Shown here: positions 1 to 54,200 of the stretch, in pieces
How the letters are laid out: every line of letters begins with the position of its first letter
Position numbering within the stretch: the first letter of the stretch is position 1
DNA from: an uncultured Acidobacteriota bacterium
GTDB taxonomy: Bacteria; Acidobacteriota; UBA6911
Reading direction: 5' to 3'
DNA length: 64,000 bases
NCBI GenBank assembly: GCA_963827655.1
Contig: CAWHCF010000038.1
Location: forward strand, 128,001 to 192,000
Position numbers and translations under genes: made by a program
Notes under the pieces: model-generated
Seen by the model: the letters and a program-made list of their open reading frames with translations, nothing else
Database searches by the model: none
What the model was told of the DNA's origin: nothing

Positions 1-1001
1 TTCGTAGACGTTCCCGACGCGGTAGTGCGACACCGACAGGTCGCATTGCCAGGAAGGTGTTGTCCGGGTCGCGCTGTGTGAGCCGCAGCCTGATCTGCTT
101 GGCGGCCTCGAATTCGCGGAGCGCCTCCGCCAGTCGGCCCTGGGCTTCGGAGATGGAGCCGACGCAGTCGTGCGCTGATGACAGTTGCCGTTGCCAGTCG
201 GTGTTGTCCGGGTCGCGCTGTGTAAAGCGTTTCGCAACTTGCTCGAAGGCATGATATTGGTCCAGCGCCCCAACCAGATTTCCCTTTTCCCTAAGGATGT
301 CTCCCAATTGGGCACGGGCGTCCATTTCACCCGGCTCGTCTTGAAGTTCATGAAACAGCTTTACTGCTTCTTGTGCCAATTCCTCAGCTTTTTGGAGGGG
401 AAGGCCGCCATGACGAATCAAGCCAACGCAGACCAGGGACTGAGCGCGAGCCAAGCGAGCCAATTGATCGGTGCCAATCAACTCTTGAAGCGCCACACCG
501 AGCGCCTGCAATGGCTCATAGCGTCCCGCCTCGTGCCACTCCCTCCAGAGTCGAACCAATTCGTCCGCGGCTTGGTCCGGCGCAGCCACCAACCGGTGAT
601 AAATTGCCTCGACACGCTGGTGGGGCTCCTCCCCTCCGAAACATCTCCTGGCTCGCGTCGGAGAGTTCGCGAAGCCGGTTGTGCGGTTCTCGCGCCATTT
701 CAGCTCGCAATACTCGTCGTGTGGCTTCGTGGACGTTACAGCCACCGCGCGCAGAGAATGCGTTCTACCATCGGCAGCTCGTTCGGAGCTTTTCCACCCA
801 GGCGCTGGCGGCTGCCTCGTCAGTTTCCATCAGGGCAGCAAGGATCTTGGGGGTAAACCAGTGTGGCACCGAGGCGGCTTCGAGGGCTGGGCGGAGTCCG
901 GGTTCATGGGCGGCCAGCACGATGTCCACCGTGGCCAAGGTAAGCTTCTGTGGGTCGCCCTGTGCGGCTTGAAGTCTCGTGATGGCGTCTTCAAAATTCA
1001 T
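1..1001 (-). CDS. Winged-helix + TPR-repeat protein (sensor half of a STAND/NLR-like system); frameshifted, runs off window start
   Basis: Starts MNFEDA at 1001 with an AASVPHWFTPKILAALM wHTH-like segment. Manual reading across indels near 780 and 630 continues into TPR-like repeats (RDPDNTDWQRQLS / RDPDNTxWQCDLSVSHYRVG). The DNA repeat GTGTTGTCCGGGTCGCGCTGTGT recurs at 57 and 201 (144 nt = 48 aa period). Confidence 0.75.
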
Positions 1002-2209
1002 TGCGCGGGGTCAGGGCTCGGGTTGGTTCGCAACCCCCGCACCATGGTCTCCAGTAGAGCGCTCACCTTACCGGGATCACCGCCGGTTGCCAGGGTGAGT
1101 GCTTTCACGTAGTCGGGCTTCACGTCCGGGCATTGCCATTTGCGCTGGCTGTATTCGAGCCAGTCGTCGACTCGCTGGATCGGCTGCAGGTCGTGGACTT
1201 CAGTAAGTGACTGCCAGGAATGCTTCCCGTGCTCCGGTATCTGCTGACCGCCAATGACGATGATCACGCCCGGAGACCGGTCCAGTCGCGGCAGCAACTG
1301 GCTCTCCAGCCATTTCTGAGCGTCCGATGATGCTTGCTCGTAGGTGTCGAAGACCAGCACGAGCGGCGAGGAGAGCTGCTGAAGATCGGAGATCAGAAGA
1401 TAGAATCTGGCCGTGCCACTGGCCGCATGAGCGTGCCGCAGAATTTCCTGGCCGAGATCCAAACGCAACGTTTCGAACAGGTCGTCCAGTAGCGGACAAC
1501 CTTTGAAGTCCAGCAAAACAGTGGGCAGCTTCGAGTGACGGGCGTAAGCGAGCAGTTCGGCGAGGAGAGCAGTCTTGCCGGTGTTGCTGGCGCCGCGCAA
1601 CAGGAGAATGCGATGCGGCGACTGGTTCGTGATCATTTTCTTGAAGAGAGCGAATTCGTCCTTACGGTCAGCGAGCTGCCAGCGGTATTCGACGCTCGGA
1701 CGGCCAGCGGATAACCCGCGGTTGGGGCGGAGGAACTACGATCGGCTCCGAACCGCGCAACCAGGCAAGGAGCTGGGCATAGCCGGCCTCCGCGTTGAAA
1801 AGCGTGGTAGCGTTTGAGCTGGTGCGGGATGTGGTCCTGGTCCGCCAGTTCGAAGAGGATGACCCGGACTCTCTCGTTGAAACCCGGCCTGGTCGAAGAT
1901 AAACTGGCGGATGGCGGCGGCTTCGCAAGCAGCGCCGAGCCCGGTGCCGGGTGCCTGGTTCCCTTCGTAGCGCTGGCTGTAGATTTCTGTGCACGCCACC
2001 AGCACCAGCTCGGCTTCTTTGACCTGGCGCTCGGACCATTGAGGCCAGCCCTCGGGTGGCCCGCCCGGCAGCATGTCGCGGTCGAGGATGACCGTCACGC
2101 CGTCGGTCCGGAGCCGGTCGGCCAGCGCGTGGACCCGCTCTTTGTGCTTTTCGCTATCGTGACTGTAGCTGATGAAAACCCGGCGCACAGCTTGAGTGTC
2201 TGCTATCAC
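998..2209 (-). CDS. SEFIR/TIR-domain + P-loop NTPase protein (frameshifted ~1650-1870)
   Basis: N-terminal RRVFISYSHDSEKHKERVHALADRLRTDGV (SEFIR/TIR). C-terminal Walker A GASNTGKT and Walker B LVLVFDTYE. The stop overlaps the next ATG (ATGA at 998-1001). Confidence 0.75.
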
Positions 2210-5472: not shown

Positions 5473-6501
5473 ATGACCTTCAATAGAGTGACGCTCGAGA
5501 GCGTGGATTTCGAAGACCAGCGCTTCCGGATCAGTGAACAACTCGACTCCGCGCGGCTGCTCGAGTCCGTGCGCCAGATCGGCCAGCTTAGTCCAGTGTG
5601 CCTGCTGGCGCGCAATGAAGCGGGTCTTGCAGTCATCTGCGGCTTTCGAAGGCTGTGGGCTTTGAGGTCCCTGGGACATCCGGACGTCCTGGCTCGAATA
5701 TGGCATGAACGCGAACACACCGATCTGGAATTGTTCCGGATGGCCCTGTGGGAAAACCTGTCGCATCGGGAACTGAGTCCTTTGGAAAAGGCGAGAGTGT
5801 TGGCGTCCTTGAAGAACCATTGCGGTGTCCAACATGACCAGCTCGTGGAGATTTACCTTCCGGTCCTTGACTTGGCCCCTCACAAAAATACACTGCGGGC
5901 CTACCTGGCGCTGCACGATCTCCATCCGCAGCTGCGGGAGATGTTGAACGATGGGCGCATCACCCTGGCCAGCGCAGAACGCCTCGCGCGCGCCCCGCTG
6001 TCGCTTCAGAGCAGAATGAGCTCGGTGCTGGAGCGTGTACGGTGGAGCGCCAGCTTGCAGCGAGAGACACTGGACCTCCTCGAAGAGCTTGCTGCCATCG
6101 CCGAGTCGGATCCCGATGAGATTCTGAGTGGAAAAGAGATAACAGAAACCGTACACGACACGAGCCTCTCGCCATTTCAAAAAGGGGAGCGGATTCACAA
6201 GTTCCTTTATCGAAAGCGAAATCCGAGACTCTCAAAAACAGAGGAACAGTTCCGGGCGCGCGAACAGGAATTGAGTCTGCCGGCGAATATCCGTGTGTCC
6301 CCAACGCCGTTCTTTGAGTCGCCCGAGATACGCGTGGAATTCAGTGTTCGCTCACCGCGGGATTTCAGGGATACGTCGAAGGCTCTGGAGCGCGCGGCGC
6401 AAGCTCCCGCGCTCGAAGCCCTCTTCTCGATTTCGGATTGCGGATTGCAGATTGCGGATTGCGATTCGCTCGCAAAGGAAAAAGGGAGTGCTAAATCCTA
6501 A
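5473..6501 (+). CDS. ParB/Srx N-terminal domain protein
   Basis: LLESVRQIGQLSPV...VICGFRRLWA (ParB CTP-binding GxRR box), ENLSHRELSPLEKA. Confidence 0.85.
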   Translation: MTFNRVTLESVDFEDQRFRISEQLDSARLLESVRQIGQLSPVCLLARNEAGLAVICGFRRLWALRSLGHPDVLARIWHEREHTDLELFRMALWENLSHRELSPLEKARVLASLKNHCGVQHDQLVEIYLPVLDLAPHKNTLRAYLALHDLHPQLREMLNDGRITLASAERLARAPLSLQSRMSSVLERVRWSASLQRETLDLLEELAAIAESDPDEILSGKEITETVHDTSLSPFQKGERIHKFLYRKRNPRLSKTEEQFRAREQELSLPANIRVSPTPFFESPEIRVEFSVRSPRDFRDTSKALERAAQAPALEALFSISDCGLQIADCDSLAKEKGSAKS

Positions 6502-6597: not shown

Positions 6598-7699
6598 GAT
6601 TATGTACCGGCCCGATCGAATCGTCGTTGAACAGGAAGCGTGGCAGGATTCCAGCACTTCTGAAATTCTGCAGCGGCTGCCAGGAATCCCGGTTACAACC
6701 ATCGAGCGGGTGGATGCCTTACTGCCTGAATTGAACCGCTCCTCGGATCCACACGCGAGCGGGAAACGGTGTTTGATCCTCACCCGGCACCGGGGACGCT
6801 TCATGAAAGACTGTCCCGGCGCCGGCGCCGAAGTCTGCTGCAATTATTTCGTGGTGAATTACGCTTCGAATTGCCATCTGGAGTGCACCTACTGCTTTTT
6901 GCAATCTTACCTGAATAATCCAGCGCTCATGGTCTTCACCAATCTGGACGATTTGCTTTCGGAGGTAGAAACCCGGCTCGGGCAGGCTCCCCAGCGCCTG
7001 TTCCGCATCGGAACAGGCGAAATATCCGATTCGCTGGCGCTCGATGACCTCACTCACTACTCGCGTCGCCTGGTACCCTTCTTCGGAGGGCTTTCGAATG
7101 GCATTCTCGAATTGAAAACAAAATCCGACCGGGTCGCGAACCTGGAGCGCCTCGATCATCGGGGACATACGGTGGTCTCCTGGTCGATCAATTCGAGGCG
7201 CGTTACTCGTGAAGAGGAGCTGAAGACAGCGAGCTTCGATCAACGGTTGGCCGCCGCGCGACAATGTCAGAAGTGGGGTTATAGAATTGGCTTCCATTTC
7301 GACCCGCTTATTCACTATGAAGGTTGGGAGACGGACTACAAGACAGCGGTGGAGGATATCTTTACCGCCGTGGACGCGTCCGGCGTAGCCTGGGTTAGCC
7401 TCGGGAGCCTGCGCTTCACGCCGCATCTCCGGGAAATCGTTCGACGCAGATTTCCCAAGTCCAAGATTCCCTACGGCGAGTTTGTTGCAGGCAACCATCG
7501 AAAGATCCGGTACTTCCGTCCCATCCGTGAGGAAATGTACACCAGGGTGCGAGGCTGGATTCGTGAGGCCGCTCCTCGAGTCTTTGTCTACCTTTGCATG
7601 GAAAACCGCGCCGCCTGGGAGCACAGTGGCGGCGCTGTGCCGCGAGATACCTCTGCGTTGTCCGATCAAATGGATTCCCTGGTCAAGCTCGAGTCTTAG
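6596..7699 (+). CDS. Spore photoproduct lyase (SplB)-family radical SAM protein
   Basis: CHLECTYCFLQSY radical SAM motif, RIGTGEISDSLALD, ELKTKS, GFHFDP, VYLCME. Confidence 0.9.
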   Translation: MIMYRPDRIVVEQEAWQDSSTSEILQRLPGIPVTTIERVDALLPELNRSSDPHASGKRCLILTRHRGRFMKDCPGAGAEVCCNYFVVNYASNCHLECTYCFLQSYLNNPALMVFTNLDDLLSEVETRLGQAPQRLFRIGTGEISDSLALDDLTHYSRRLVPFFGGLSNGILELKTKSDRVANLERLDHRGHTVVSWSINSRRVTREEELKTASFDQRLAAARQCQKWGYRIGFHFDPLIHYEGWETDYKTAVEDIFTAVDASGVAWVSLGSLRFTPHLREIVRRRFPKSKIPYGEFVAGNHRKIRYFRPIREEMYTRVRGWIREAAPRVFVYLCMENRAAWEHSGGAVPRDTSALSDQMDSLVKLES

Positions 7700-7792
7700 T
7701 GTTTCTTCGTGACTTCGTGTCTTCGTGGTTAGAGGAAGACTCAAAGACACGAAGACACACCAAGAATCTTCTTTCAATACGAAGACGCAAAG
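7700..7792. repeat. Inverted nonamer (CACGAAGAC-type) repeat cassette
   Basis: gtgtttcttcgtgacttcgtgtcttcgtgg ... actcaaagacacgaagacacacc; family recurs at ~12701, 15686, 23670, 25505, 39076, 41563, 45081 and 62303. Confidence 0.85.
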
Positions 7793-7905
7793 AATTGCTT
7801 TTTAGCCTTTAACATAGATAGACTCCCCTGCGAACAAAGGGTCTCGTGATCCTTTGCGCCTTTGCGGTGAGCACGCTAGACCTCGACCTCTTCGGGTATG
7901 TCCGG

Positions 7906-9432
7906 GTGAAATACGGCTTTGTGATTGATAACCGGCGGTGCATCGGATGCCATGCATGCACGGTTGCCTGCAAAGCCGAACATGAGGTGCCGCTCGGGAA
8001 ATTTCGCACTTGGGTCAAGAACGTAGAGAAGGGATCTTTCCCCGACGTGCGGCGTTACTTCACGGTCTTGCGCTGCAACCATTGCGACAACGCCCCCTGT
8101 GTCACGATCTGCCCGACGCGCGCGCTTTTCACCCGTCCCGACCGGATCGTAGATTTCGATAACGAACAATGTATTGCCTGCAGGTCCTGCATGGCCGCCT
8201 GCCCGTACGATGCCATCTACATCGATCCCCATACGGAGACTGCTGCCAAATGCAACTATTGCGCTCACAAGGTGGAGAGAGGATTGGAGCCGGCGTGCGT
8301 GACGGTTTGTCCGGAAGAGGCCATTGTTGCCGGAGACCTCGATGATCCGCTGAGCAGGATATCGCGTCTGATCGCTACCCAGCAGGTCACCGTGCGCAAG
8401 CCTGAAAAAGGAGCCTTGCCGAAGCTCTATTACATCGATGGCGACATGACTTCGCTCACTCCGGGCGCGGCTCCCAAGAGCGCCAGCTACATGTGTGCCG
8501 AGCGGCCGCCGGAGGAGGTAGACGCCGACTTCCGGATTCTGTCCGACACAGATCGCGCGCAAACCACGTATGACGTCGCGCACGAGAAGGCTTGGGGATT
8601 TCTCATACCCCTCTACCTGTGGACCAAATCGCTGGCGGCCGGGCCGATTCTTGTAGCGGCTCTGTTGATGCTCATGGGCTATGCCCGGGCGCCGGTGCTG
8701 TTTGGCCGCGTGGCTCCGCTGATGGCGCTGGTCCTTACCTTCATTACAACCCTTCTTCTGATCGGAGACCTCGAAAGGCCGGAGCGCTTTCTCAAGGTTT
8801 TGTTCCACCCCAATCTGCGCTCCTGGCTGGTGTGGGGCGCATACATTTTGATTCTCTTCTCCGGCATCGGGATGTTATGGCTGTTCGCCGGTTTCGTCGG
8901 CTCAGGGCCGCTTCTGGGTTTGCTTCTCTGGCCGGCTCTGATTCTTGCGGCCATGACTGCCGGGTACTCGGCTTTCCTCCTGGCTCAGGCCAAGGCGCGC
9001 GACCTGTGGCAGTCCCGGCTGCTCTTTCCCCACTTGATTGTTCAAGCTTTCCTCGCCGGATCCGCCGCGCTGGCGCTGGCATCGTTCTATTTTGAATCGG
9101 GGCGCTTCCTCACCGATCTGTTGCTCCGCTGCCTGTTGGTTGGGCTTTGCGTGCATGGCGTCCTCCTGCTGAGTGAGATCGCTCTACCTCACGGCAACCA
9201 GGACGCGGCGGGAGCCGTACAATACATGCTTCAGGGTCCTCTGGCCCGCCTGTTCTGGTTTGCGGCGGTATTCAGCGGAGTCGCAATACCGATTCACCTG
9301 CTGGCCTTCTATTTCGCGGACCCCTCCTCCGGCTTCGCCTTTCCCATGCTGGCTTCCGCGCTGTCCCTGATCGGGCTTCTGGCCTTCGAGGACTGCTTTA
9401 TTCGCGCCGGTCAGGCGATGCCGTTGACTTAG
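7906..9432 (+). CDS. 4Fe-4S dicluster subunit fused to NrfD/PsrC membrane anchor
   Basis: CIGCHACTVAC, CNHCDNAPC, CIACRSCMAACPY and KCNYC clusters followed by an NrfD domain (DLERPERF). Confidence 0.92.
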   Translation: MKYGFVIDNRRCIGCHACTVACKAEHEVPLGKFRTWVKNVEKGSFPDVRRYFTVLRCNHCDNAPCVTICPTRALFTRPDRIVDFDNEQCIACRSCMAACPYDAIYIDPHTETAAKCNYCAHKVERGLEPACVTVCPEEAIVAGDLDDPLSRISRLIATQQVTVRKPEKGALPKLYYIDGDMTSLTPGAAPKSASYMCAERPPEEVDADFRILSDTDRAQTTYDVAHEKAWGFLIPLYLWTKSLAAGPILVAALLMLMGYARAPVLFGRVAPLMALVLTFITTLLLIGDLERPERFLKVLFHPNLRSWLVWGAYILILFSGIGMLWLFAGFVGSGPLLGLLLWPALILAAMTAGYSAFLLAQAKARDLWQSRLLFPHLIVQAFLAGSAALALASFYFESGRFLTDLLLRCLLVGLCVHGVLLLSEIALPHGNQDAAGAVQYMLQGPLARLFWFAAVFSGVAIPIHLLAFYFADPSSGFAFPMLASALSLIGLLAFEDCFIRAGQAMPLT

Positions 9433-9501
9433 TGCGCGGTTTCATGAATACGGTGTCTTTATTTCCGGTGGCTCTTTCGGTGTCTGACCGTAGTCGAACC
9501 A

Positions 9502-9856
9502 GGCGAAGCAAGCTTCGCCCAACTAAGTTGGCTGGGGGCAAAATTACGGTAACGTATTTGGGGCGAGCGGTAGGAGTTGACTCTGTTGTCGCCAGGGCCG
9601 AAGGACCGGCAGTGAGTAGCCCCGCCCGTCAAAACTCAGATTCCCCTGGTAGGTGGCTCAGAGATTCTTCCGAGCGCCCTGTGGCGACGGTCCATCAGGC
9701 CCGTCGCAAACAACATAATCGAGATGACTCAGCCTCAAAAAGTTCATTTGTGCCGCCACTAGCCGACGGGCTTGATAGGCCGTCCGCACTTATTGGCAGG
9801 TTTTGAGACAATCTCTTAGGGCCGGGCCTTCTCTCTGTCGGCCTTTCAGGCCTCAA
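9502..9856. repeat. Intergenic cluster of REP-like palindromes with a MITE/IS-end remnant
   Basis: GGCGAAGCAAGCTTCGCC (reverse complement also at 27454); REP-like copy 9592-9629; IS-end-like GTTTTGAGACAATCTCT at ~9800-9817. Confidence 0.5.
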
Positions 9857-15816: not shown

Positions 15817-17380
15817 ATGCGGCGCGTCAGACGTTCGCCTAAACCGATTGACCGGAGAAGCTTCCTGCGTGACACAGGACTCTTAGGGCTTTCTCTTGGT
15901 TTTCCTTATATCAACATCAGCACGGCAGGGGGCGCCCAGTTCTCGTCAAACCCCTTTGCTCTGGGAGTAGCTTCCGGCGACCCGCTGCCCGACGCAATCG
16001 TACTGTGGACGCGTCTCGCGCCCCAACCAATGCAAGGCGGAGGCATGCCCCCGGCCGCTGTCTCGGTGGAATGGCAAGTCGCCGCAGACGAAAAGATGGG
16101 CAAGGTCATTAAACGCGGGACGGCAACGGCGTCGACTGACATGGCGCACTCGGTGCACGTCGATGTGCGCGGTCTCGAACCCGCGCGCTGGTACTGGTAC
16201 CAGTTCAAAGCCGGATCTCATGTCAGCCCGGTCGGCCGAACCCGCACTGCTCCTGCAACCGGCTCCGAAGTCGACCGGCTGAAACTTGCCTTCGTCTCAT
16301 GCCAGCACTACGAGCACGGTTTCTTTGTTTCATACCGCCACATGGCCGCCGAGGATCTCGATCTGGTGATTCACCTCGGTGATTACATCTACGAAGGCGC
16401 AGCCCAGACTACCGGCGTCCGGCAACATCACGGCGGCGAGATCAAGACGCTGGAGGAATACCGGAATCGCCACGCGCAGTACAGGACGGACCCCGACCTG
16501 CAGAAGGCGCATGCGCTGTTTCCGTGGATTGTTACCTGGGATGATCATGAGGTGGACAATAACTACGCAAACGAAGCCGAAGAGCGGGGCGCGCCCAGGC
16601 AGGAATTTCTGGCCCGGCGCGCGGCTGCTTACAAAGCGTACTACGAGCATATGCCGCTGCGGCGCGCGTCGCTGCCGCGCGGGCCCAATATGGAGCTCTA
16701 CCGGCGTCTGACTTTCGGAAACCTCGCCGAATTTTCCGTCCTGGACACCCGGCAGTACCGCACCGACCAGCCGTGCGGCGATGGTAATAAACCCCCGTGT
16801 CCCGCGTCGCTGGATGCCGAGCGCGACCATGCTGGGACCTGCGCAGGAGCGATGGCTGTTTCAAGGATTGGATCGTTCGAAAGCCAGATGGAATGTCATC
16901 GCTCAGCAGGTGATGATGGCGCAGGTCGATCGTCGAGCCGGCCCCGACAAGATGTTCAGCATGGATCAGTGGAGCGGCTATGTCGAAGGCAGAAACCGCA
17001 TCCTGAGCTTTCTACGCCGCCGGAAGCCGGCAAATCCGATCGTGCTCACGGGAGACATCCACTCGAACTGGGTGGCAGATCTGAAGACGGACTTCAGCGA
17101 CCCCAAGTCGGAAACGGTGGGCACAGAATTTGTCGGCAGCTCGATCAGTTCCGGTGGTGACGGAGAGGATGTGCCTGCCGGCGTGCAGGCTTATCTCCCG
17201 GAAAATCCGCACATCCGCTTCTTCAATGGCCAGCGGGGCTATGTGCGCTGTGCCCTCACGCCCAGCCGCTGGCAAACCGACTACCGCATCGTTTCGTCGG
17301 TTACCCGCCAGGATGGAACCATCAGCACTCGGGCTTCGTTCGTGGTGGAAAACGGAAAGCCGGGAGCCGAGCGAGCCTGA
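15817..17380 (+). CDS. phoD: Alkaline phosphatase D, Tat-exported (indel ~16820)
   Basis: DRRSFL Tat motif, [29 protein letters not shown]. Confidence 0.92.
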
Positions 17381-35483: not shown

Positions 35484-36502
35484 GTGACTTATTCTCGTCT
35501 TTCGGAGGGCGCTACGATCCGCGACTTGCCTCGTATCCACCTGGCTTACCTTCCCACGCCCGTGGACTTCCTTTCACGTCTCAGCGGCGCATTGCGGGGT
35601 CCTCGCATCTTCATCAAGCGCGATGATCTCACGGGCCTGGCGGAGGGGGGAAACAAGACCCGAAAACTCGAATATCTGCTGGCCGAGGCGAAGGCGCAAG
35701 ACGCCGATACCCTGGTCACGCTGGGTGCGCGACAATCAAACCACTGCCGGCAGACTGCGGCGGCGGCCGCCAGATGCGGCCTCAGGTGTATTCTCGTTCT
35801 GCGCGGCGACCCGCCGGCGGCAGCACCGGCAATCTGCTGCTCGATCGCTTGTTGGGCGCCGAGGTGCTCTGGTCCGGCAGCCGCCCGCGTGAGACGGTGA
35901 TGGACGAAGTCGTCGCGCGCGAACAGGCGTCGGGACGGCGGCCTTACGCTATTCCTCTGGGGGGGTCCAGCTCGCTCGGGGCCGCGGCATACGCAATCGC
36001 GATGGGCGAGGTGAAGGACCAGATGGCCTCGCTCGAGAATCAGCAGGTCGCCCGATTCGATCGGATCATCTTTGCGTCGAGTTCGGGCGGCACGCATGGC
36101 GGGCTTGTCGCCGGGGCGTACTTGACCGGCTTTGAAGGCGAGATTCTTGGAATCAGCATTGACCAGGAGCTTGCCGAACTTAAAGAGGCCGTCTCGCGCA
36201 TCGCGACCGGCGTGGCCGGCTTGCTCGCCCAGCCGCGCGCGTTCGCGGCGCGCGAGATCTCCGCCAGCGCCGACTACCGGGGTGAGGGATATGGAGTCAT
36301 GGGCAAGCCCGAGCGCGAGGCCATTTCATTGTTTGCCCGGCTCGAGGGTGTTTTATTGGATCCGGTTTACACCGGGCGCGCGGCTGCCGGCATGATCGAT
36401 CTTATTCGCCGGCGAGTAATCGGCCCCGAGGAGACGATTCTCTTCTGGCACACCGGCGGAACCCCGGCTCTCTGGGCGTACGAGCGCGAGTTACTCGCTT
36501 AG
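35484..36502 (+). CDS. D-cysteine desulfhydrase / ACC deaminase family PLP enzyme (indel ~35820)
   Basis: [36 protein letters not shown]. Confidence 0.9.
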
Positions 36503-45720: not shown

Positions 45721-47033
45721 GTCCCTACCAACAATTCCGTCCAGACGGAGAATATTGCACTTATAGATTTGGCCTGTTAGGCTCCCGATCTATGTGCCGC
45801 GTAGTTCGGACTACTCTCGTTGAGCTCGACCCTACAATTCGGCTTCCGCAGCCGAGCTACACTGTTGGCGGAGATCCTGGCCCTGCGACAGCAGATCAAC
45901 GTCCTCAGACGCTCCGTTCCCAACCGTCCCAGACTTCGACCATCGGACCGACTTTTCTGGACATGGCTGTTGCGCGTCTGGCCCGACTGGCGCTCCGCTC
46001 TTGTCCTCGTGAAACCGGAAACAGTCGTCGCATGGCATCGCAAAGGTTTCCGATTCTTTTGGACCTGGAAAAGCCGGCATGGGCGAGCCGGGAGACCTTC
46101 GATTCCCAAGGACGTCCGCGAGCTGATCCGCAGCATGAGCAAAGCCAATCCGCTTTGGGGAGCTCCGCGGGTTCATGGAGAAATCCTCAAACTCGGAATC
46201 GAGCTCTCGCAGGCGACCGTCGCCAAGTACATGGGCCGGCGTCCAAAGCCACCCTCGCAAACCTGGCGCACGTTCCTCAAAAATCACAGCAAAGAAATCG
46301 TTTCGATCGACTTCTTCACGGTTCCGACCATTACGTTCCGCATTCTCTACGTCTTCCTCGTCCTGGCTCACGACCGGCGGAAGGTGCTCCACTTCAACGT
46401 TACCGCTCATCCAACCTCAGAATGGGTTTCACAGCAGCTTGTTCAAGCCTTTCCATGGGACACGGCGCCACGATATCTCGTGCGCGACCGCGATGCGATC
46501 TACGGTGAGCGCGTGCGAGGGCAGTTGAAGGACATGGGAGTCAAAGAAGTCCTTACTGCCCCTCGATCGCCATGGCAATCTCCTTATGTCGAGCGCCTGA
46601 TCGGATCCATCCGACGCGAATGCCTCGATCACATCGTCGTGATCAGCGAAACCTCGCTCCGCAGAACACTACGCTCCTATTTCGCTTACTATCACAGAAG
46701 CCGCATTCACCTCGCACTGAATAAAGACGCACCAGACCCACGCCCAATATACCCTCCCGAACTTGGCACTGTCGTCGCGCTCCCAGAGGTCGGCGGCCTT
46801 CACCATCGATACGAAAGAAGAGTTGCCTGACACAGGGAACCGGGCTCTACTTCTTTCGCAAGGTTCCGAGCCAGCCGTGTGCCCGCTGTGCCAATTGATG
46901 CTGAATGCTCGCCTTGAAAATGCCCTCCGAGGGACCAAAATCGTGCCGCGTCCGAATCCCCAACTTCCCCCTCCGGCGATAACTGGGCGAAACGACCCCC
47001 GAGCCCTCTTGGTCGGAGTTTTTGGTAGGGACT
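45720..47033 (+). mobile_element. IS481/IS3-like insertion sequence with rve integrase-core transposase
   Basis: Left end TGTCCCTACCAACAATTCCG; right end CGGAGTTTTTGGTAGGGACT (17/20 inverted match); no TSD visible. Confidence 0.8.
45820..46830 (+). CDS. Integrase-core (DDE) transposase
   Basis: NPLWGAPRVHGE, SIDFF, RDRD, SPWQSPYVERLIGSIRRECLD. Confidence 0.92.
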   Translation: MSSTLQFGFRSRATLLAEILALRQQINVLRRSVPNRPRLRPSDRLFWTWLLRVWPDWRSALVLVKPETVVAWHRKGFRFFWTWKSRHGRAGRPSIPKDVRELIRSMSKANPLWGAPRVHGEILKLGIELSQATVAKYMGRRPKPPSQTWRTFLKNHSKEIVSIDFFTVPTITFRILYVFLVLAHDRRKVLHFNVTAHPTSEWVSQQLVQAFPWDTAPRYLVRDRDAIYGERVRGQLKDMGVKEVLTAPRSPWQSPYVERLIGSIRRECLDHIVVISETSLRRTLRSYFAYYHRSRIHLALNKDAPDPRPIYPPELGTVVALPEVGGLHHRYERRVA

Positions 47034-47460
47034 GGCACCTGATGCTGGCCGCGATCGGGGACGTGGGCCGTGACGGCATCGATCCATTCGAGCGGGTCGA
47101 AGATGCGGACCGTGGCGCCGGTGCGGGGATCCGGGGGGCGTTTGGATCTCGAAACGGCCGTCCTCGCGCCGGCGGATACTGTCGATCGCAAGCGCCGGGC
47201 GAGAGATGTAACGCGCGACGCGCTCGAGGCCTTGTCGGTCTTCGGTGGGAATAATATCGCCGGCGAAGACGGAAAAGCCCGGATGCACCCACCCGAGCAG
47301 GTTGTGCATGAAGCGCTCCGATAGGCGCTCTTGGGCGTGAAGGCGGCGGAGCAGGAGGCGGCGAAAGATCTCGCCTACGGCTGCCGTGTCGACCGAGGGC
47401 AACTCGAAGAACTCTCCTGCCCGAGTAAAGACTCCATCGGAAACAAGCAGGTGCAGGTGG
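47034..47460 (-). pseudogene. IS91-family (Y2) transposase, C-terminal fragment
   Basis: HLHLLVSDGVF, HPGFSV, RVARYISRP, FDPLEWI..VTAHVPDRGQH. Confidence 0.85.
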
Positions 47461-48237
47461 CGCAGGCGTTCACGAGTCCTGTACCTCGACCATGTCGAGG
47501 GTGATGGGCGGCTGCTGTTCGAGCAAACAGGTGTCAAGGTGATATTGTTGCTATCATGAGCCGAACGGGCTATCGTTCGACGCGAATCGTCCTCACGTTG
47601 ATTGTGGGCTAGGAACGTCGCGGGTTCCCCACTATCGATAGCGCGTCCGCCTATCTCGAAACAGGACTCCAGTTCGGCTCGCCGTCACCGGTCGTGGTCT
47701 ACGGACCATCACGAGCGTTTCCCATGCTGCACAACCGAATCAAGGCTTTACGCGTCGTTGCAGCACTGACGGTGCTGGTGCAAGCTTTCTGCTCGGCCGG
47801 TTTCGGTGCGATGTGTAGTCGCGAAGCTTCCCTTGAAAATTCCACCTGAGCCCGCCCTATCCTCCATCAGCCGTTCAAGCAAATTCCTATTGGTTTTATG
47901 ACTGTGATCTCTTCCGTGACGGCATATGTGATGCCTAAGCGCGATAGTTCGGCCTGCGTAGCTCGATAGCACGCCGATCTTAAACGCTCGTTAGCGTTAT
48001 CGCTCACGCGTTGTTTCCGAGTGTTTGCGATTCTTCTGCCGATCGAAAACGGTGCTGGGCTTACACGATCCATTTATTTTTTCTTTCAATCAGCAGTAAA
48101 AAGCATCTACCATGGTTCAATCCAGAATCTCTGAGAAACAGCCCTCACGAGGCCCATATTTACGTTTACCGTAAGTCTCGTCCCCGTTAGGCTTAGCAGT
48201 TTAGGTCAATCTGATGTGAGTCTCATGGAGAATAGAA

Positions 48238-51200
48238 ATGAAATTTGACTTCACTTCGGAAATCGGCCGTTCACGGATTGCATGGTCCGGCATCGGCTTT
48301 TTCGCGCTGGCGTTCCTTCTGGTGCCCTCGGTGGCGCTGGCTGAGAACGTGGTTATTCCGCAGGGCGTGACCGGGACGCTAATCCTAACGTTCAAGGAAA
48401 CCAATGGCGCGGCGTGTGAACGAGTTCGGTGTTATCAGGCGCGAAGGCCTGTCAATTGTCTACCAGAGGTTGATGGACACATCACCGAGTCGGTCCCCCG
48501 CGTCTTAGACTTCAATCCCCAGGTCCGCGGGGGCGAGACATTTGAGTTTTATATCCAAACCAACAAGCTTTTCATTCCGGATGTCACGCCGGCCACCTAC
48601 TCAAGTGACCCTAAGCAAAATGCAACTATTGATCCCGGCCTCCTGGACCACATTCAGCAGCCTCAGCAGCAATCGAACAATGTCTGGCTATTGCGTTGGG
48701 AGGATAAGAAGAGCTCGGATCCAGGCTTTGACAAGGACTTCGACGACCTGGTCGTGACCGTGCAGGTCCTACCGGCCCGCTGCGACAACGTGACGATTCC
48801 CTGCCCCGGCATCAACGATGTAACCTCGAATCATAATGCGACCCGCGTCGCCCCCGTGCTAGAACGCCGCTCTCGACCGCATCGAGCTGGCGATCGGTCC
48901 GTCTACGAAAACCAGCCAGAGCTTCCTAGTGCCGAAGGGGATAACGTCGTGCACCGGGTCTTCCGTGGATAACCTGCGGTTCAGCTTCATGCAGGAGAGC
49001 ATCGACTATCAGACAATGGTGCGGCCTCAAGTCGAAGGCTGCGCATCGTGCGGTGCCGTCCGAGGCGGGAACGTGGGTGGGCTCCCAGAGTTGACGATTC
49101 GCCGCTACCACCGACCGCGGGAGACGGCGGTCTGGTCCTCATTCGGACCGGGGGTGTTCAGCAACTTTGATACGAAAATCGAGCTCATCACCATGGGACT
49201 GGGCAACCAACCTAATGTCCGTCTCTTCGACGCCACCACCGATACCCCACTACTTACGTTTTTCGAGCTGAGCCCCGAGGATGGCGATGTGGCAGAGGAT
49301 GGTGTGTACCACGAGACCGCGACCCGAATCTGGAAGGCGCTGGAGCTGTTTAGCGACAGGGAGAGGCGCATACGCACGAGCAGCCAGAGCAATGCCGTGA
49401 CCGCGGTCCTGACCGCGCACACGGGCGAGCGACTGGTGTTTGAAGTCATCCGCATACAGCCTGCGGACCCCGCACTCTACGGCCGACTGATACGCCTCGA
49501 GGACCCAAACCAGAACGCCGTGATTGTTAGCTATGTGTACGGAGCTCAGGCCTCGAACCCGGCACCTGGAACGCGGTTATGGCAGATCCATACGATCACG
49601 GATGCTTATGGGATATCCGCGCGGTTCCATTATCGCGACGCATTAGTGGGGGGCCGCTGGGCGGTCAACCGGATTGAGCTCCCAACTGACGGACAGCTCC
49701 GACAGCTCCAATACCTGTATAGACAGGAGCTGCCCGCTCAGGTGGACGAAGGACCTTTCCTACAGGAGGTAATCCATCCCGACGGCACACGATCGCGTTT
49801 CACATTGCGCTTCGACCCGGCCACGAAGCTCGTGGCGCTGGGGTTCGATGACAGCGCCGAAGGTCCCGGACAAGCGCGGAAAGAGGTTTTTGTCACCCCG
49901 AGCCAGGCCTGTCCAATGGGACTAGCGTGAGCCAAACGCCGCACCTCGTCCGACTCATAGTCAACGGCGATGGCGAATTGGTTTACCGAAATTGGGAGGA
50001 CCCGGCCGACCCGCGCATCATCTATGTCTACGAGGGCGGGGTGCTGCATCGTCTGACGACACGCGATGATGGGTTTCCGGTTGCCTATGCTCGCGCGGTG
50101 TCCTACCGTGTGGATCGGGATCCGCGCAGCGCAACGTTCGAGACCATCGAGACGTACGACGCCAACTTGCAGCAGATGCTGGAGGAGCGGAAGGATGCGC
50201 TGGGACGCGTAGAGAAACTCACTCGTGATGACGCGAGCCGTGCTGTTAAGGGTCTGACGTTCTCTGCCGATAGCTCGACAGTTGTCGCCACGTACAACGC
50301 GTTCCGCAAACCGGAGAAGGTGACCGATCGATTGAAAAGAATTAATACATAATACCTATGACATCCGCGGCAATGTCCTGAGCAGAAACCGTCGCCCTAG
50401 GGACCCCGGACCAGGCGACGTGGCGGCGGGGGTACAACCCCAGCCGGGGCCAGCTGACATTTTTGACGGACGCCAATGGCAACAGCACCGAGTATAGGTA
50501 CGACCGGACGGGCCGGCTTGAATCTCAGATCGAACCGGCCCACGGCCCCGGTGAGCCAAAGGCGACTACAACCTTCGCATACGATTCCCGTAGGCCGCCT
50601 CATGTCGCGGAAGGACGCGGAAGGGCGAACGATCAGCTTCAAGTATGATCTCCGGAACAGGGTGATTTCGATTCACTACCCCGACGGCAGCGCGGAAAGC
50701 TTCGACTATGGCCAGGACAAAATGGTTGGGGGGAATTGCGGCCATCAGCCCGCCAACCTGCTCATCGCGTATACCGATCGCAATGGCAATGTGCAACGGT
50801 TCGAATACGACCGGACGAAGCGGCTCTGCGCCAAGATCATGGCTGCAGGAAGACCCGAAGAGGTGCGCGATCTTTACACATATGTTCCGGGGACGTCGCT
50901 GGTTAAGACCACGGTGCAGCGGGGTGAGCAAACCGACTATGAACGGGACGGGCGCAATCGGCTCACAGCCACTGTCGTACATATTTCTGGAGGCCGAGCC
51001 CTGAGAACCTCGACAATCTATGATGTGCTCGACCGCGTAGTCCAAAGCACGGACCCTTACGGCCGTTCGGTCTTGTTCGTTTACGACGTGAACGATCGCC
51101 TGAAGCGCACGATTACCGAGCTTGTCCCTAGGGGCGTTCCACAGGCAGCGAATCTAGAGATGCTGCCGCGCGATCAAAGCCTAAACCCGCCGTACGTCAT

Positions 51201-54200
51201 CTGGGACATCAATTCAGACAGCATGGGTCAGGTAAAGAGAGTTATCGATGGTCGGGGAATTGAGACAACGTTTGACCACGATGGTCAGGGGCGCCTGACG
51301 GAGCAGATCGAAGCCTTCGGAACTAAATGTGGCGGCCAGGACTAAGCGCGAGTACGACAAGCGTCGGGAACCTGATTCGCATGATCCATCCGCGGAACTT
51401 CACGGAAGGAGACGCCGTACGGCCCTTTATCACTCGGTACACACCACACGAATCGCAATCTACAGCGGTCAGTCACGGTCGCAGCCGACACGCCGGACCA
51501 GGCAACCACCACCAAGCACTACACCCTGACCGGAAAGCAAAAGGAGATCGAAGATGCGCGTGGCCATAAGACGAGCTTCCGTTACGAACCGTGCTGTGAC
51601 CGCTTGAAAGAAATGATTGATCCCACAGGCGCCGTAACCCGCTATGGTTACGATCCTTACGGCAATCGAACATCAGTCACCGATCCGAACGGGAACGAGG
51701 TGCGCTTCGAGTATGACGGCCTGCATCGAATGAAAGCACAAACCAACGCCGAGCGGAGAAACGACGCGCTTCGACTACGATGACGATCTGACCGACGGGC
51801 GCGGGCTGGATCAGCGTTTCCGAGAGCACATAAGGGATCTCGGCTTTTCGCGTGGGGCCGATGGCATGGCAATGTTGGTCACAAATCCGCTTAACGAGAC
51901 GACCCTGACTGTGATGGACAGCTTGGGCCGTGTCGTACGGACGGTCGACGGGAACGGCAACGCTACAACGATGAGCTACGATGCGGTGGTGGGTGGACTA
52001 GTTGAGACGACGCGCAGCGATGCTCTCGGACACACTTCGCGGTCCCGCCAGGACGGTCTCGGCAGGGAGAGGCAGCGCCTCGACGCGGAGGGGAAAGTGA
52101 CAACTGCGATGTTCGATGCGGCCGGCAACCGGAGGGCGGTCTTCGATCCGGACCTCGTGGGCGAGAGTTGCATGTTCGACGCTCGCAATCGCCCGACGAC
52201 CTGCATGGACACCAAAGGCGACACTCGGGAGACGAGGTACGACGCTCACTCGAACCAGACCTTCCTCCTCGACGGTCGGGGGGCGATCACGAGGATGGAG
52301 TTCGATGCGCGAGATCGAGTGACGAACCGGTTTGATCGTATTGGTGGTAATACGATCTTTGTCTACGATCAAAACTCGAATCTGGTACGTACTCAAGACG
52401 CCGAGCGCAACACGACCGTTTATGAATACGATGCCCGAAACTTGCGGATAAGAGAGACCTTTCCGTCCTCCGGGGGACGACTGGACACTAGGTCAATGGT
52501 CTTCGACCCTGGACGACGATTGATATTGCGCATCGACCAGGCTGGCGAAACCGACACAGTCGAGTACTTGAGTATGACCGAGCCAATCGGTTGGTGCGAC
52601 GACGCTACCGCGATCGTCAGGACGACATATTCGAATATGATGACGCATCTCGCTTAAAATCGGCGCGTTCGGAGCGCTACGGGACTTTGGTACAGCGGCA
52701 GTACTACCCCAACGGGCTTCTCAAGGAGGAACAGCAGGACGTGCTCGGCGAGCATCACGTGCTGAACTACACGTACGATCGCGCCAACCGACAGACGCAG
52801 GTGACTTACCCGGATGGGAGCGTGGTGGTACGAACGTTTACCGACCGCGATCAGCTGAAGACAGTGTCGCTCAACGGGTCGCTGATTGCATCACGGGATG
52901 AGTATTCCATTGGGATGCGGCTGCGTCTGGCGAGACTGGGCAACGGGCTTGTCGAACGCCGCGATTATTCACCGCGACGGGTCTGCTGTGCCCTACTGGA
53001 GGTTCCGGGCGTAACGACGTTTTCTTATAGCTATGACGCCAACAAGTGGAAGCAGGAGGAACGGGTAACGACAGCTCCCGACGAGAGCCAAAGCTTCCTC
53101 CGTGCTGACGGCACCTCGGGCTATGATGCCGAGGGCCGCCTCGAGTCCTGGGCCCGGGGCAGCGCCCAGACGCAGACGTGGACCCTGAGCCCCGTGGGCG
53201 ACTGGAAGCAGACACAGCGAAACGGCGCTGTTGAGGATTCGCACGCATAATCCCGTTCACGAGCTGACAGGGATCAACGGCAGGTCACTATCGTACGATC
53301 CGAAGGGAAACCTCGTCGGCGACGACCACGGGAACAGCTACGCCTGGGACTTCGAGAACCGACTGCTGCGGGCCCAAGGACTTCAGGGAGAGACACGCTA
53401 TTTCTATGATGCGCTCGGGCGACGACTCGGCAAGACAACGGGCATGACCGTGGTAAGGATGACTACGGTATTCGTGCACGACGGGGAGCAAGTGGTCGCC
53501 GAGTACGAGAACCAGCGTCTCGCTCGCCGCTATGTCTACGGCTCCTATATCGACGAGCCGCTAGCGCTTGCGATGGGTGAGGAGCTGTTTTTCTACACCG
53601 CGAATCACCTGTACTCGGTGGCAGCGCTCACCGACCGGAATGGTCGCGTCATCGAGCGTTACCGATACGACGCCTACGGCGCGCGGACAGTCACGGATCC
53701 GGGAGGGACCTCGCGCGCAGCATCGATCGTTGGCAACCAGATTGGTTTTACCGGACGCTATCACGATGAAGACTCCGGGCTTATCGATTTCCGTAGCCGG
53801 CAATATGACCCCCGCCTCGGACGGTTCATCGGCCGCGATCAGGGCTACACTGACGGCATGTCTCTCTATGCAGCCTACTTCGTGCCGAATCAGACGGACC
53901 CGTTCGGATTAGCCCGAAGCTGCGAAAATACCAAAGATCTTAACACAGTGGACCTTCCTGTGCAGCCCATGCCGAAACCCTTACTCAAAACCACCGAGTT
54001 CGCCACAGGTTGTCTGCTAAAGTGTACGGAGCACTATGAGAAGGGAGTGCGATTACATAGTAACAACTGTGACCACAGCAGACGGCAAGACTGTAACCAC
54101 CACTACCAAAACCTGTACTGAGTGGGAACTCGTCAGCATAACTTGCGGTAATGTGGAGTGTGTGGGTGATTCAGGTCCGGGAGCCGGTGGCCCACCGGGG

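Follow-up and report, generated by a model that had tools for sequence, protein, structure and literature searches.

STAND (NLR-like) receptors hold a central place in the immunity of bacteria, plants and animals alike, and how the winged-helix and sensor half of such a receptor keeps its nucleotide-binding half off is a standing question. Among the closest described systems, bSEFIR has been described as a single protein that, according to the NARP1 preprint (10.1101/2024.02.11.579819), depletes nicotinamide adenine dinucleotide (NAD+) through the SEFIR domain at its N-terminus and, according to a second preprint, defends Bacillus against phage (Millman et al. 2022, 10.1101/2022.05.11.491447). 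Avs and other one-chain antiviral STANDs, as presented in a STAND census (Lee et al. 2026, PMC13581612), combine a swappable effector, a P-loop nucleoside triphosphatase (NTPase), a helical domain, a winged helix and a TPR-like sensor in this order. Here we describe a gene pair with the same order of domains and likewise swappable effectors, which differs from these systems in consisting of two polypeptides, the cut separating the helical domain from the winged helix. The pair is located at the start of a 64,000-nucleotide stretch (hereafter the window) of an 8.18-Mb, 53-contig genome of an uncultured Acidobacteriota bacterium (GCA_963827655.1, contig CAWHCF010000038.1, hereafter C38, positions 128001-192000). 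The split SEFIR-NTPase/winged-helix-TPR pair is real, conserved and widespread, and we consider it likely that the pair constitutes a two-gene, translationally coupled, hinge-split STAND (NLR-like) module with an antiphage role, probably exerted through NAD+ depletion.

All features of the pair are on the minus strand, where the list of open reading frames (ORFs) and a three-frame translation give four ORFs spanning the region. Gene 1 (SEFIR-NTPase, 2209/2188..998) comprises an ORF of 157 aa at 2209..1736, starting MIADTQAVRRVFISYSHD, with possible GTG starts at 2209 or 2188 and the stop of the assembled SEFIR frame at 1738-1736, and an ORF of 212 aa at 1636..998 that contains GASNTGKT and belongs to an open frame starting at 1699. 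Gene 2 (winged-helix-TPR, 1001..1, continuing beyond the window) comprises an ORF of 78 aa at 1001..765, whose product starts MNFEDAITRLQAAQGDP, and a TPR-rich ORF at 745..2 that runs off the window start; its stop codon is at window position -590 (C38:127410), about 590 bases beyond that start. The two genes meet in an ATGA overlap, as an earlier note made from the sequence of the window had stated: TCAT of the plus strand at 998-1001 reads ATGA on the minus strand, with TGA at 1000-998 closing the P-loop ORF and ATG at 1001-999 opening gene 2. The features of the pair, with the evidence for each in brackets, are:

1736..2209, minus strand: 5' part of gene 1, SEFIR/TIR-like effector domain (ORF list, Pfam, PADLOC, profile match to 5y8f)
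1690..1885, minus strand: gene 1 segment containing the three net +1 indels (three-frame translation, frameshift-aware alignment to the homologue P0001)
998..1699, minus strand: 3' part of gene 1, P-loop NTPase and short helical domain ending GGDPG (Pfam, AlphaFold2 and Foldseek of the homologue P0016)
998..1001, minus strand: ATGA overlap, gene 1 stop and gene 2 start (sequence, similar junctions in homologous loci)
640..1001, minus strand: 5' part of gene 2, two N-terminal helices followed by a winged-helix domain with the motifs PHWF, PMVE and NVHE (AlphaFold2 of gene 2 of locus L002)
1..640, minus strand: helical spine and TPR sensor of gene 2 (Pfam TPR families, VIA-align)
1..223, strand not assigned: portion of the 144-nt (48-aa) tandem repeat array that falls inside the window (Tandem Repeats Finder)

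The first ORF of gene 1 matches Pfam SEFIR (expect value (E) 3.2e-10) and TIR_2 (1.6e-9), so that SEFIR scores above TIR, as it should in a bSEFIR protein, by a narrow margin. A profile of its homologues matches the solved Bacillus SEFIR domain 5y8f (E 1.1e-13), solved SEFIR domains are the only sequence-level PDB matches, and the family-invariant Glu in GLGxxCEA is kept in the window copy. The likeness to bSEFIR comprises this N-terminal SEFIR-type domain with its conserved Glu, and bSEFIR is the only PADLOC model matching the pair, over the SEFIR domain only (E 1e-32 to 6e-27 on homologues); the match is limited to profile positions 40-190 of 412 and the rest of gene 1 is unmatched. Whereas bSEFIR is one protein, the SEFIR domain is here fused to a STAND-type NTPase accompanied by a separate winged-helix-TPR gene.

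The NTPase ORF matches Pfam AAA_16 (E 1.4e-7; its 32.6 bits exactly equal the cut-off) and NACHT (0.0012). A full HMMER scan of 1.84 billion representative proteins recovered 667 NTPase relatives at E<=1e-3, the best 150 of which provided the domain and length counts given here; AAA_16 occurs in 62 of them. Gene 1 has the Walker A (GASNTGKT) and Walker B (LVLVFDTYE) motifs of a STAND/AAA_16-type P-loop NTPase, followed by DFKGCP (motifs named by reading the sequence), and G200/K201 and D277 are invariant among its homologues; invariant residues were defined from 29 homologues for gene 1 and 10 for gene 2. The AlphaFold2 model of P0016 (predicted local distance difference test (pLDDT) 89) consists of a TIR-like domain, a P-loop domain and three helices. 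Its best Foldseek matches, with low template modelling (TM) scores, are the plant TIR-NLR RPP1 (7dfv_B, E 2.4e-8), CED-4 (3lqq_B, 9.4e-6) and Cdc6. RPP1 and CED-4/Apaf-1 resemble gene 1 in having a TIR-like and then a nucleotide-binding domain; with TM-scores of 0.31-0.36 and about 13-15% identity this likeness is at the fold level only, and proteins of these types are, unlike the pair, single chains with LRR or other sensors. Among the Avs models in PADLOC-DB of 2023, which predates later Avs families, only Avs2 matched (E 0.005; residues 7-42, the P-loop, of the window NTPase) and none matched gene 2, and NCBIfam holds no model for either gene, giving only sub-threshold TPR noise.

In gene 2, the ORF at 745..2 matches Pfam TPR families, with TPR_12 at 29.3 bits just under its cut-off of 30.1, and the ORF at 1001..765 matches nothing in Pfam. 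Gene 2 homologues likewise contain TPR families. The 48-aa repeat has a period of 144 nt and 4.8 copies (79% matches, score 756), and the array covers window positions -471..223 (L001 29-723); the SEFIR/TIR domain, the P-loop NTPase and the 48-aa TPR repeats that the earlier note had read from the sequence are all recovered by Pfam and Tandem Repeats Finder. The AlphaFold2 model of gene 2 of L002 (pLDDT 93.3) shows two helices, a winged helix (H38-47, b53, H55-62, H66-76, b82-85, b90-93) and, from about residue 118, an all-helical TPR solenoid, and the NVH motif is invariant among gene 2 homologues. VIA-align placed model residues 110-508 on TPR proteins with Z up to 31, including domain III of MalT (1hz4; Z 25.3, root mean square deviation 4.0, 325 aligned residues). 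Gene 2 thus carries the C-terminal repeat (TPR) sensor that characterises the STAND superfamily. MalT-type STAND regulators resemble the pair in this sensor fold, and the Atlas clusters nearest to gene 2 residues 1-130 carry WHD_MalT (score 0.97), which we treat as a lead only; they differ in that the pair has no LuxR-type DNA-binding output, its outputs being effector enzymes, and in that Pfam WHD_MalT is not detected in it.

The division into two genes is a property of the family. A search of proteins of 372-2000 aa retrieved 32 relatives, all with lengths of 381-521 aa and a C-terminus at the same place as that of the window NTPase; 29 carry SEFIR and three, of 519-521 aa, another N-terminal domain. 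Only five of the best 150 representatives reach more than 100 aa past the NTPase, and TPR families occur in only two. DNA of relatives, fetched from genomes and metagenomes, contributed 19 loci with this NTPase, 17 of them testable, from Acidobacteriota, Gammaproteobacteria, Betaproteobacteria and Gemmatimonadota-type metagenome-assembled genomes (MAGs), short-read assemblies included. A winged-helix-TPR gene lies directly downstream in 16 of the 17, the exception being L009, and two further contigs end there; in these 16 loci it shares its encoded N-terminal sequence with the window's gene 2. Between the NTPase and the winged-helix gene there is a stop codon in every case (16/16), and six loci (L003, L004, L008, L010, L084, L085) have a 4-nt ATGA or GTGA overlap. 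Where a canonical start is found near the expected place, gene 2 begins within a range from 20 nt before the end of the stop to 13 nt after it; in L005 the expected start lacks any ATG, GTG or TTG, and in L082 the nearest start is further upstream. The view of the earlier note that the split is genuine and not the product of an indel is therefore upheld, as is its expectation that homologues would show the same two genes: none of the 16 loci has a single fused ORF across the junction at 998-1001, and the two genes do occur together elsewhere.

One-chain fusions, the usual STAND form, are rare, with two cases among the best 150 representatives. P0066 (918 aa) is a SEFIR-NTPase with the gene 2 sequence from residue 378, and P0072 (983 aa) is a version of this type of fusion with a trypsin-like N-terminus (Trypsin_2); hhalign to the gene 2 profile gave a probability of 100 for both. 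A third candidate, a 1054-aa protein of a Methylomonas MAG (L009, 6001-9165) with the order SEFIR-NTPase-Roc-COR-A-COR-B and a C-terminal ThsB-like TIR, was rejected as a true sensor fusion, the partner of its NTPase being Roc-COR-TIR and not winged-helix-TPR. The closest relative of gene 1, P0001 (406 aa), has a C-terminal tail reaching about 11 residues further, which matches the other frame of the window across the junction (975-1030); either the overlap of the two genes is longer in that organism, or there is a separate frameshift.

The N-terminal domain of gene 1 varies. Among the best 150 representatives it is SEFIR in 42, TIR_2 in 35, Trypsin_2 in five and PNP_UDP_1 in two, with Pkinase, PIG-L, CHAT, Metallophos, EAD5, EAD8 and SMEK_N once each, and such swapping of effectors is a pattern typical of conflict systems. 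This domain changes, whereas the partner is of one winged-helix-TPR family in all 16 loci, so that the effector is exchangeable and the sensor is not. Hence, of the two-component immune receptor with an exchangeable sensor that the earlier note had proposed, the two components stand and the exchangeable sensor does not, the immune role being plausible.

Modelling of the two proteins together, a step that the note had suggested, passes its controls. Complex prediction for the NTPase half together with residues 1-320 of gene 2 gave a score of 0.73, compared with 0.30 for the best of three controls; 58 of 80 solved complexes attain the mark applied, as do 2 of 110 mismatched pairs, counts that are only rough, own alignments having been used. 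The runs agree in at least 92% of contacts, with a partner pLDDT of at least 89. To the predicted interface, gene 1 contributes its P-loop, the DFKGCP motif, which is invariant, and the final helices of helical domain 1 (HD1), and gene 2 contributes helices 7-35, H51, residues 80-88 and N92/H94. In the predicted complex, the last gene 1 helices pack on the two helices with which gene 2 begins, residues of DFKGCP and the P-loop that are invariant face invariant residues of PHWF, PMVE and NVH, and H94 lies beside the P-loop.

On our reading, gene 1 provides the N-terminal SEFIR/TIR-type effector, the P-loop nucleotide-binding domain and the first helices of HD1, and gene 2 two further helices, the winged helix with its conserved His (NVHE), the helical spine and the 48-aa-repeat TPR sensor. 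We hypothesise that the two proteins form a heteromer which rebuilds the STAND core in trans. With the winged helix over the nucleotide pocket, this complex would be held off until a phage protein binds the TPR arm and the winged-helix/sensor subunit moves; the NTPase subunits could then oligomerise and bring the SEFIR domains together, and the clustered domains would degrade NAD+, leading to abortive infection. Each step beyond the predicted heteromer, from binding in the cell and the trigger to NADase activity and phage defence, we infer from the domains, the conserved split, the co-occurrence of the genes, the rare fusions and the predicted interface. More tentatively, the cut between HD1 and the winged helix may turn the autoinhibitory hinge into a protein-protein interface and the winged-helix-TPR subunit into a separable trans-inhibitor and sensor, a possibility that we consider less likely than not. 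Within that scheme, and taken jointly with it no more confidently, a phage protein might displace the sensor and so free a generic effector-NTPase subunit to polymerise.

An immune role, as judged from sequence, is plausible because gene 1 has a SEFIR/TIR effector, because different effectors occur on the same NTPase and because defence genes lie beside some of the loci. PADLOC-listed defence-type genes are located within 6 kb in four of five other loci examined, namely RtcR-like and mad2 (L003), DpdF-like (L010), IetA-like (L088) and patatin and TIR (L009) genes, and no PADLOC defence gene was found near the fifth (L005). The flanks of 15 loci contain no conserved third gene, recurrences being restricted to near-identical loci and one ORF of L002 and L003. 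In these two of the 15 loci, a sigma-54-activator-like ORF lies upstream of the pair; the two are 39% identical to each other, and that of L003 matches the PADLOC model RtcR_PspF2 CARF_AAA_HTH at 3.4e-112.

As assembled, the window copy is broken in both genes, which the earlier note had taken as intact. The SEFIR and NTPase ORFs are in the same frame with a stop between them, and pieces of the SEFIR-NTPase are readable in all three frames. Frameshift-aware alignment to intact homologues places three net +1 insertions in gene 1, near 1879-1883, 1794 and 1694 (frame 1 to 2 to 0 to 1), and four net insertions in gene 2, near 780 (+2), 760 (+1), 656-686 (+1) and 52-58 (+1). Read through these seven breaks, gene 1 is identical to P0001 in 301 of 402 aligned residues, as closely inside as outside the shifted segments, and of the invariant residues, all 34 are present for gene 1 and 55 of 56 for gene 2 (89/90 in total). 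Neither gene has in-frame stops except those resulting from the shifts.

Frame changes are found in further genes of the assembly, too. A codon-usage Viterbi pass over C38 gave 53 same-strand frame switches in 217 kb, of which 29, at a distance of over 30 nt from the stop that closes the upstream frame, are candidate shifts, or about 0.13 per kb as a lower bound; 19 of these are net +1 versus 10 net +2/-1 (n=29), a bias too weak to name the sequencing technology. In the window, PhoD (15907-17368, plus strand) changes frame mid-domain (Pfam profile 1-181 and 185-343), a PALP enzyme (35499-36487, plus strand) is split at profile positions 60 and 86, and an RHS-repeat protein (51472-54001, plus strand) is in four frame pieces. 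On contig C8 (77700-86155), there is one frame switch in each of rpoB and rpoC (near C8:80968-81014 and 83757-83819), the strongest sign that the indels are technical. Because 89 of 90 family-invariant residues are kept and other genes also change frame, the seven breaks are most likely, in our fairly confident estimation, indel errors of the assembly.

Public data cover the locus sparsely. No public sequencing run holds it, the best sharing 13% of sampled words, and contigs of related organisms from four runs cover only fragments and resolve one of the seven indel sites: in runs X1 and X3, such contigs have one A fewer in the AAA at 1880-1882, which would restore the frame there. Near 1794, a contig about 90% alike differs by +4 nt.

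Several results weigh against a functional, antiphage split receptor at this locus. The complex prediction may have passed through likeness to solved one-chain STANDs rather than through real binding. For the winged helix, Pfam WHD_MalT matched none of six N-terminal gene 2 pieces at E up to 10, and the fold search with gene 2 was filled by TPR proteins and covered only residues 118-508. All related loci come from MAGs or metagenome contigs, and they are not independent, L003/L004, L006/L007, L084/L085, L010/L086 and L012/L084 being close kin. The defence-island context that the earlier note had proposed looking for, present around four of the other loci described above, is absent here, since none of the 20 ORFs flanking the window locus matches PADLOC at 1e-5. 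Neither a second copy of the pair in this genome nor any copy in 40 relatives of the genome was found. Finally, the indel density at the pair, seven in about 2.8 kb, is some 19 times the contig-wide lower bound, an excess that error alone does not explain and that low local read depth over an accessory, repeat-bearing locus, or real recent decay, would fit.

Recent decay is the alternative that best survives this evidence. The window copy would then be a true pseudogene pair, with the family functional elsewhere, to which we assign a minor but real chance. The excess of indels over the roughly 0.13 per kb of the contig argues for it, as does the accessory nature of the locus, which is missing from the 40 relatives and has no flanking genes in common with other loci. 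Yet stops other than shift-caused ones are lacking, the family-invariant residues are all but one intact, identity does not drop in the shifted segments, and at the sole readable site two related contigs lack the extra base. Essential rpoB and rpoC are frame-shifted as well, and with indels spread over the assembly (PhoD, PALP and RHS included), a broken ORF here is therefore no evidence of a pseudogene. A search of 72,556 plasmid records gave no match to the pair.

It is improbable that the pair is instead a non-immune signalling or regulatory STAND, similar to MalT or AfsR, or that the TPR gene is a neighbour acting independently. A regulatory function would agree with the resemblance of the sensor to MalT domain III and of the winged helix to WHD_MalT clusters, and with the 20 flanking ORFs free of known defence genes, but the pair has no DNA-binding output domain. 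Furthermore, the gene 1 outputs (SEFIR/TIR, trypsin-like peptidase, PNP, CHAT, kinase and effector-associated domains) are the usual set of conflict systems, and PADLOC-listed genes do lie close to most of the other loci examined. An independent neighbour is at odds with the co-occurrence in 16 of 17 loci, the existence of fusions and a predicted interface that runs through motifs invariant on both sides. Least credible of all is an artefactual split of a single-chain SEFIR-STAND-TPR gene by an indel or assembly error at 998-1001, for although the assembly has many indels, P0001 reads across the junction in another frame and the one-chain P0066 and P0072 exist, the junction stop recurs in all 16 loci, including short-read assemblies from several phyla, all 32 close relatives end with the NTPase, and TPR families are confined to 2 of the best 150 representatives.

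Some further features were noted. Beyond the end of gene 2, the large gene that follows on the minus strand (L168 about 7690-9530; window about -4310 to -2470) would, judged by eye, encode a membrane protein with C-terminal TPRs, and it likewise reads in three successive frames. Elsewhere in the window, also by eye, are an ORF with a ParB-like N-terminus (5473-6501, plus strand) and a transposase-like fragment in two frames (46901-47469, minus strand). The large RHS/YD-repeat locus (48235-54001, plus strand) is frame-broken; the ORFs that precede it, with a weak DUF4114 match, fall in no known family, and it may be a locus of the toxin-delivery type.

A full-text literature search, with figures and bioRxiv supplements outside its reach, did not turn up any account of a STAND divided at the boundary of helical domain and winged helix, and the term SEFIR is absent from the text and the searched supplementary files of the STAND census (Lee et al. 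2026, PMC13581612); figures or bioRxiv supplement tables may contain the clade without comment. For annotation, tools that expect one-chain STANDs, or a sensor of at least 400 aa on the NTPase protein, will miss these sensors and may give gene 1 no label other than SEFIR protein. As a practical matter, the assembly of this genome has many indels, and its broken ORFs should not be taken for pseudogenes.

For the family, the finding is that a large and widespread group (667 representative clusters at E<=1e-3) has its receptor cut at or beside the hinge, with the two halves translationally coupled. If the winged-helix-TPR subunit does act as a trans-inhibitor, a single sensor scaffold could work with many different effector-NTPase genes (SEFIR, trypsin, PNP, kinase, CHAT), and the pair would be a natural two-component NLR whose autoinhibition could be studied by mixing two proteins. 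The split family is a ready-made system for examining autoinhibition, activation and effector swapping with separate proteins.

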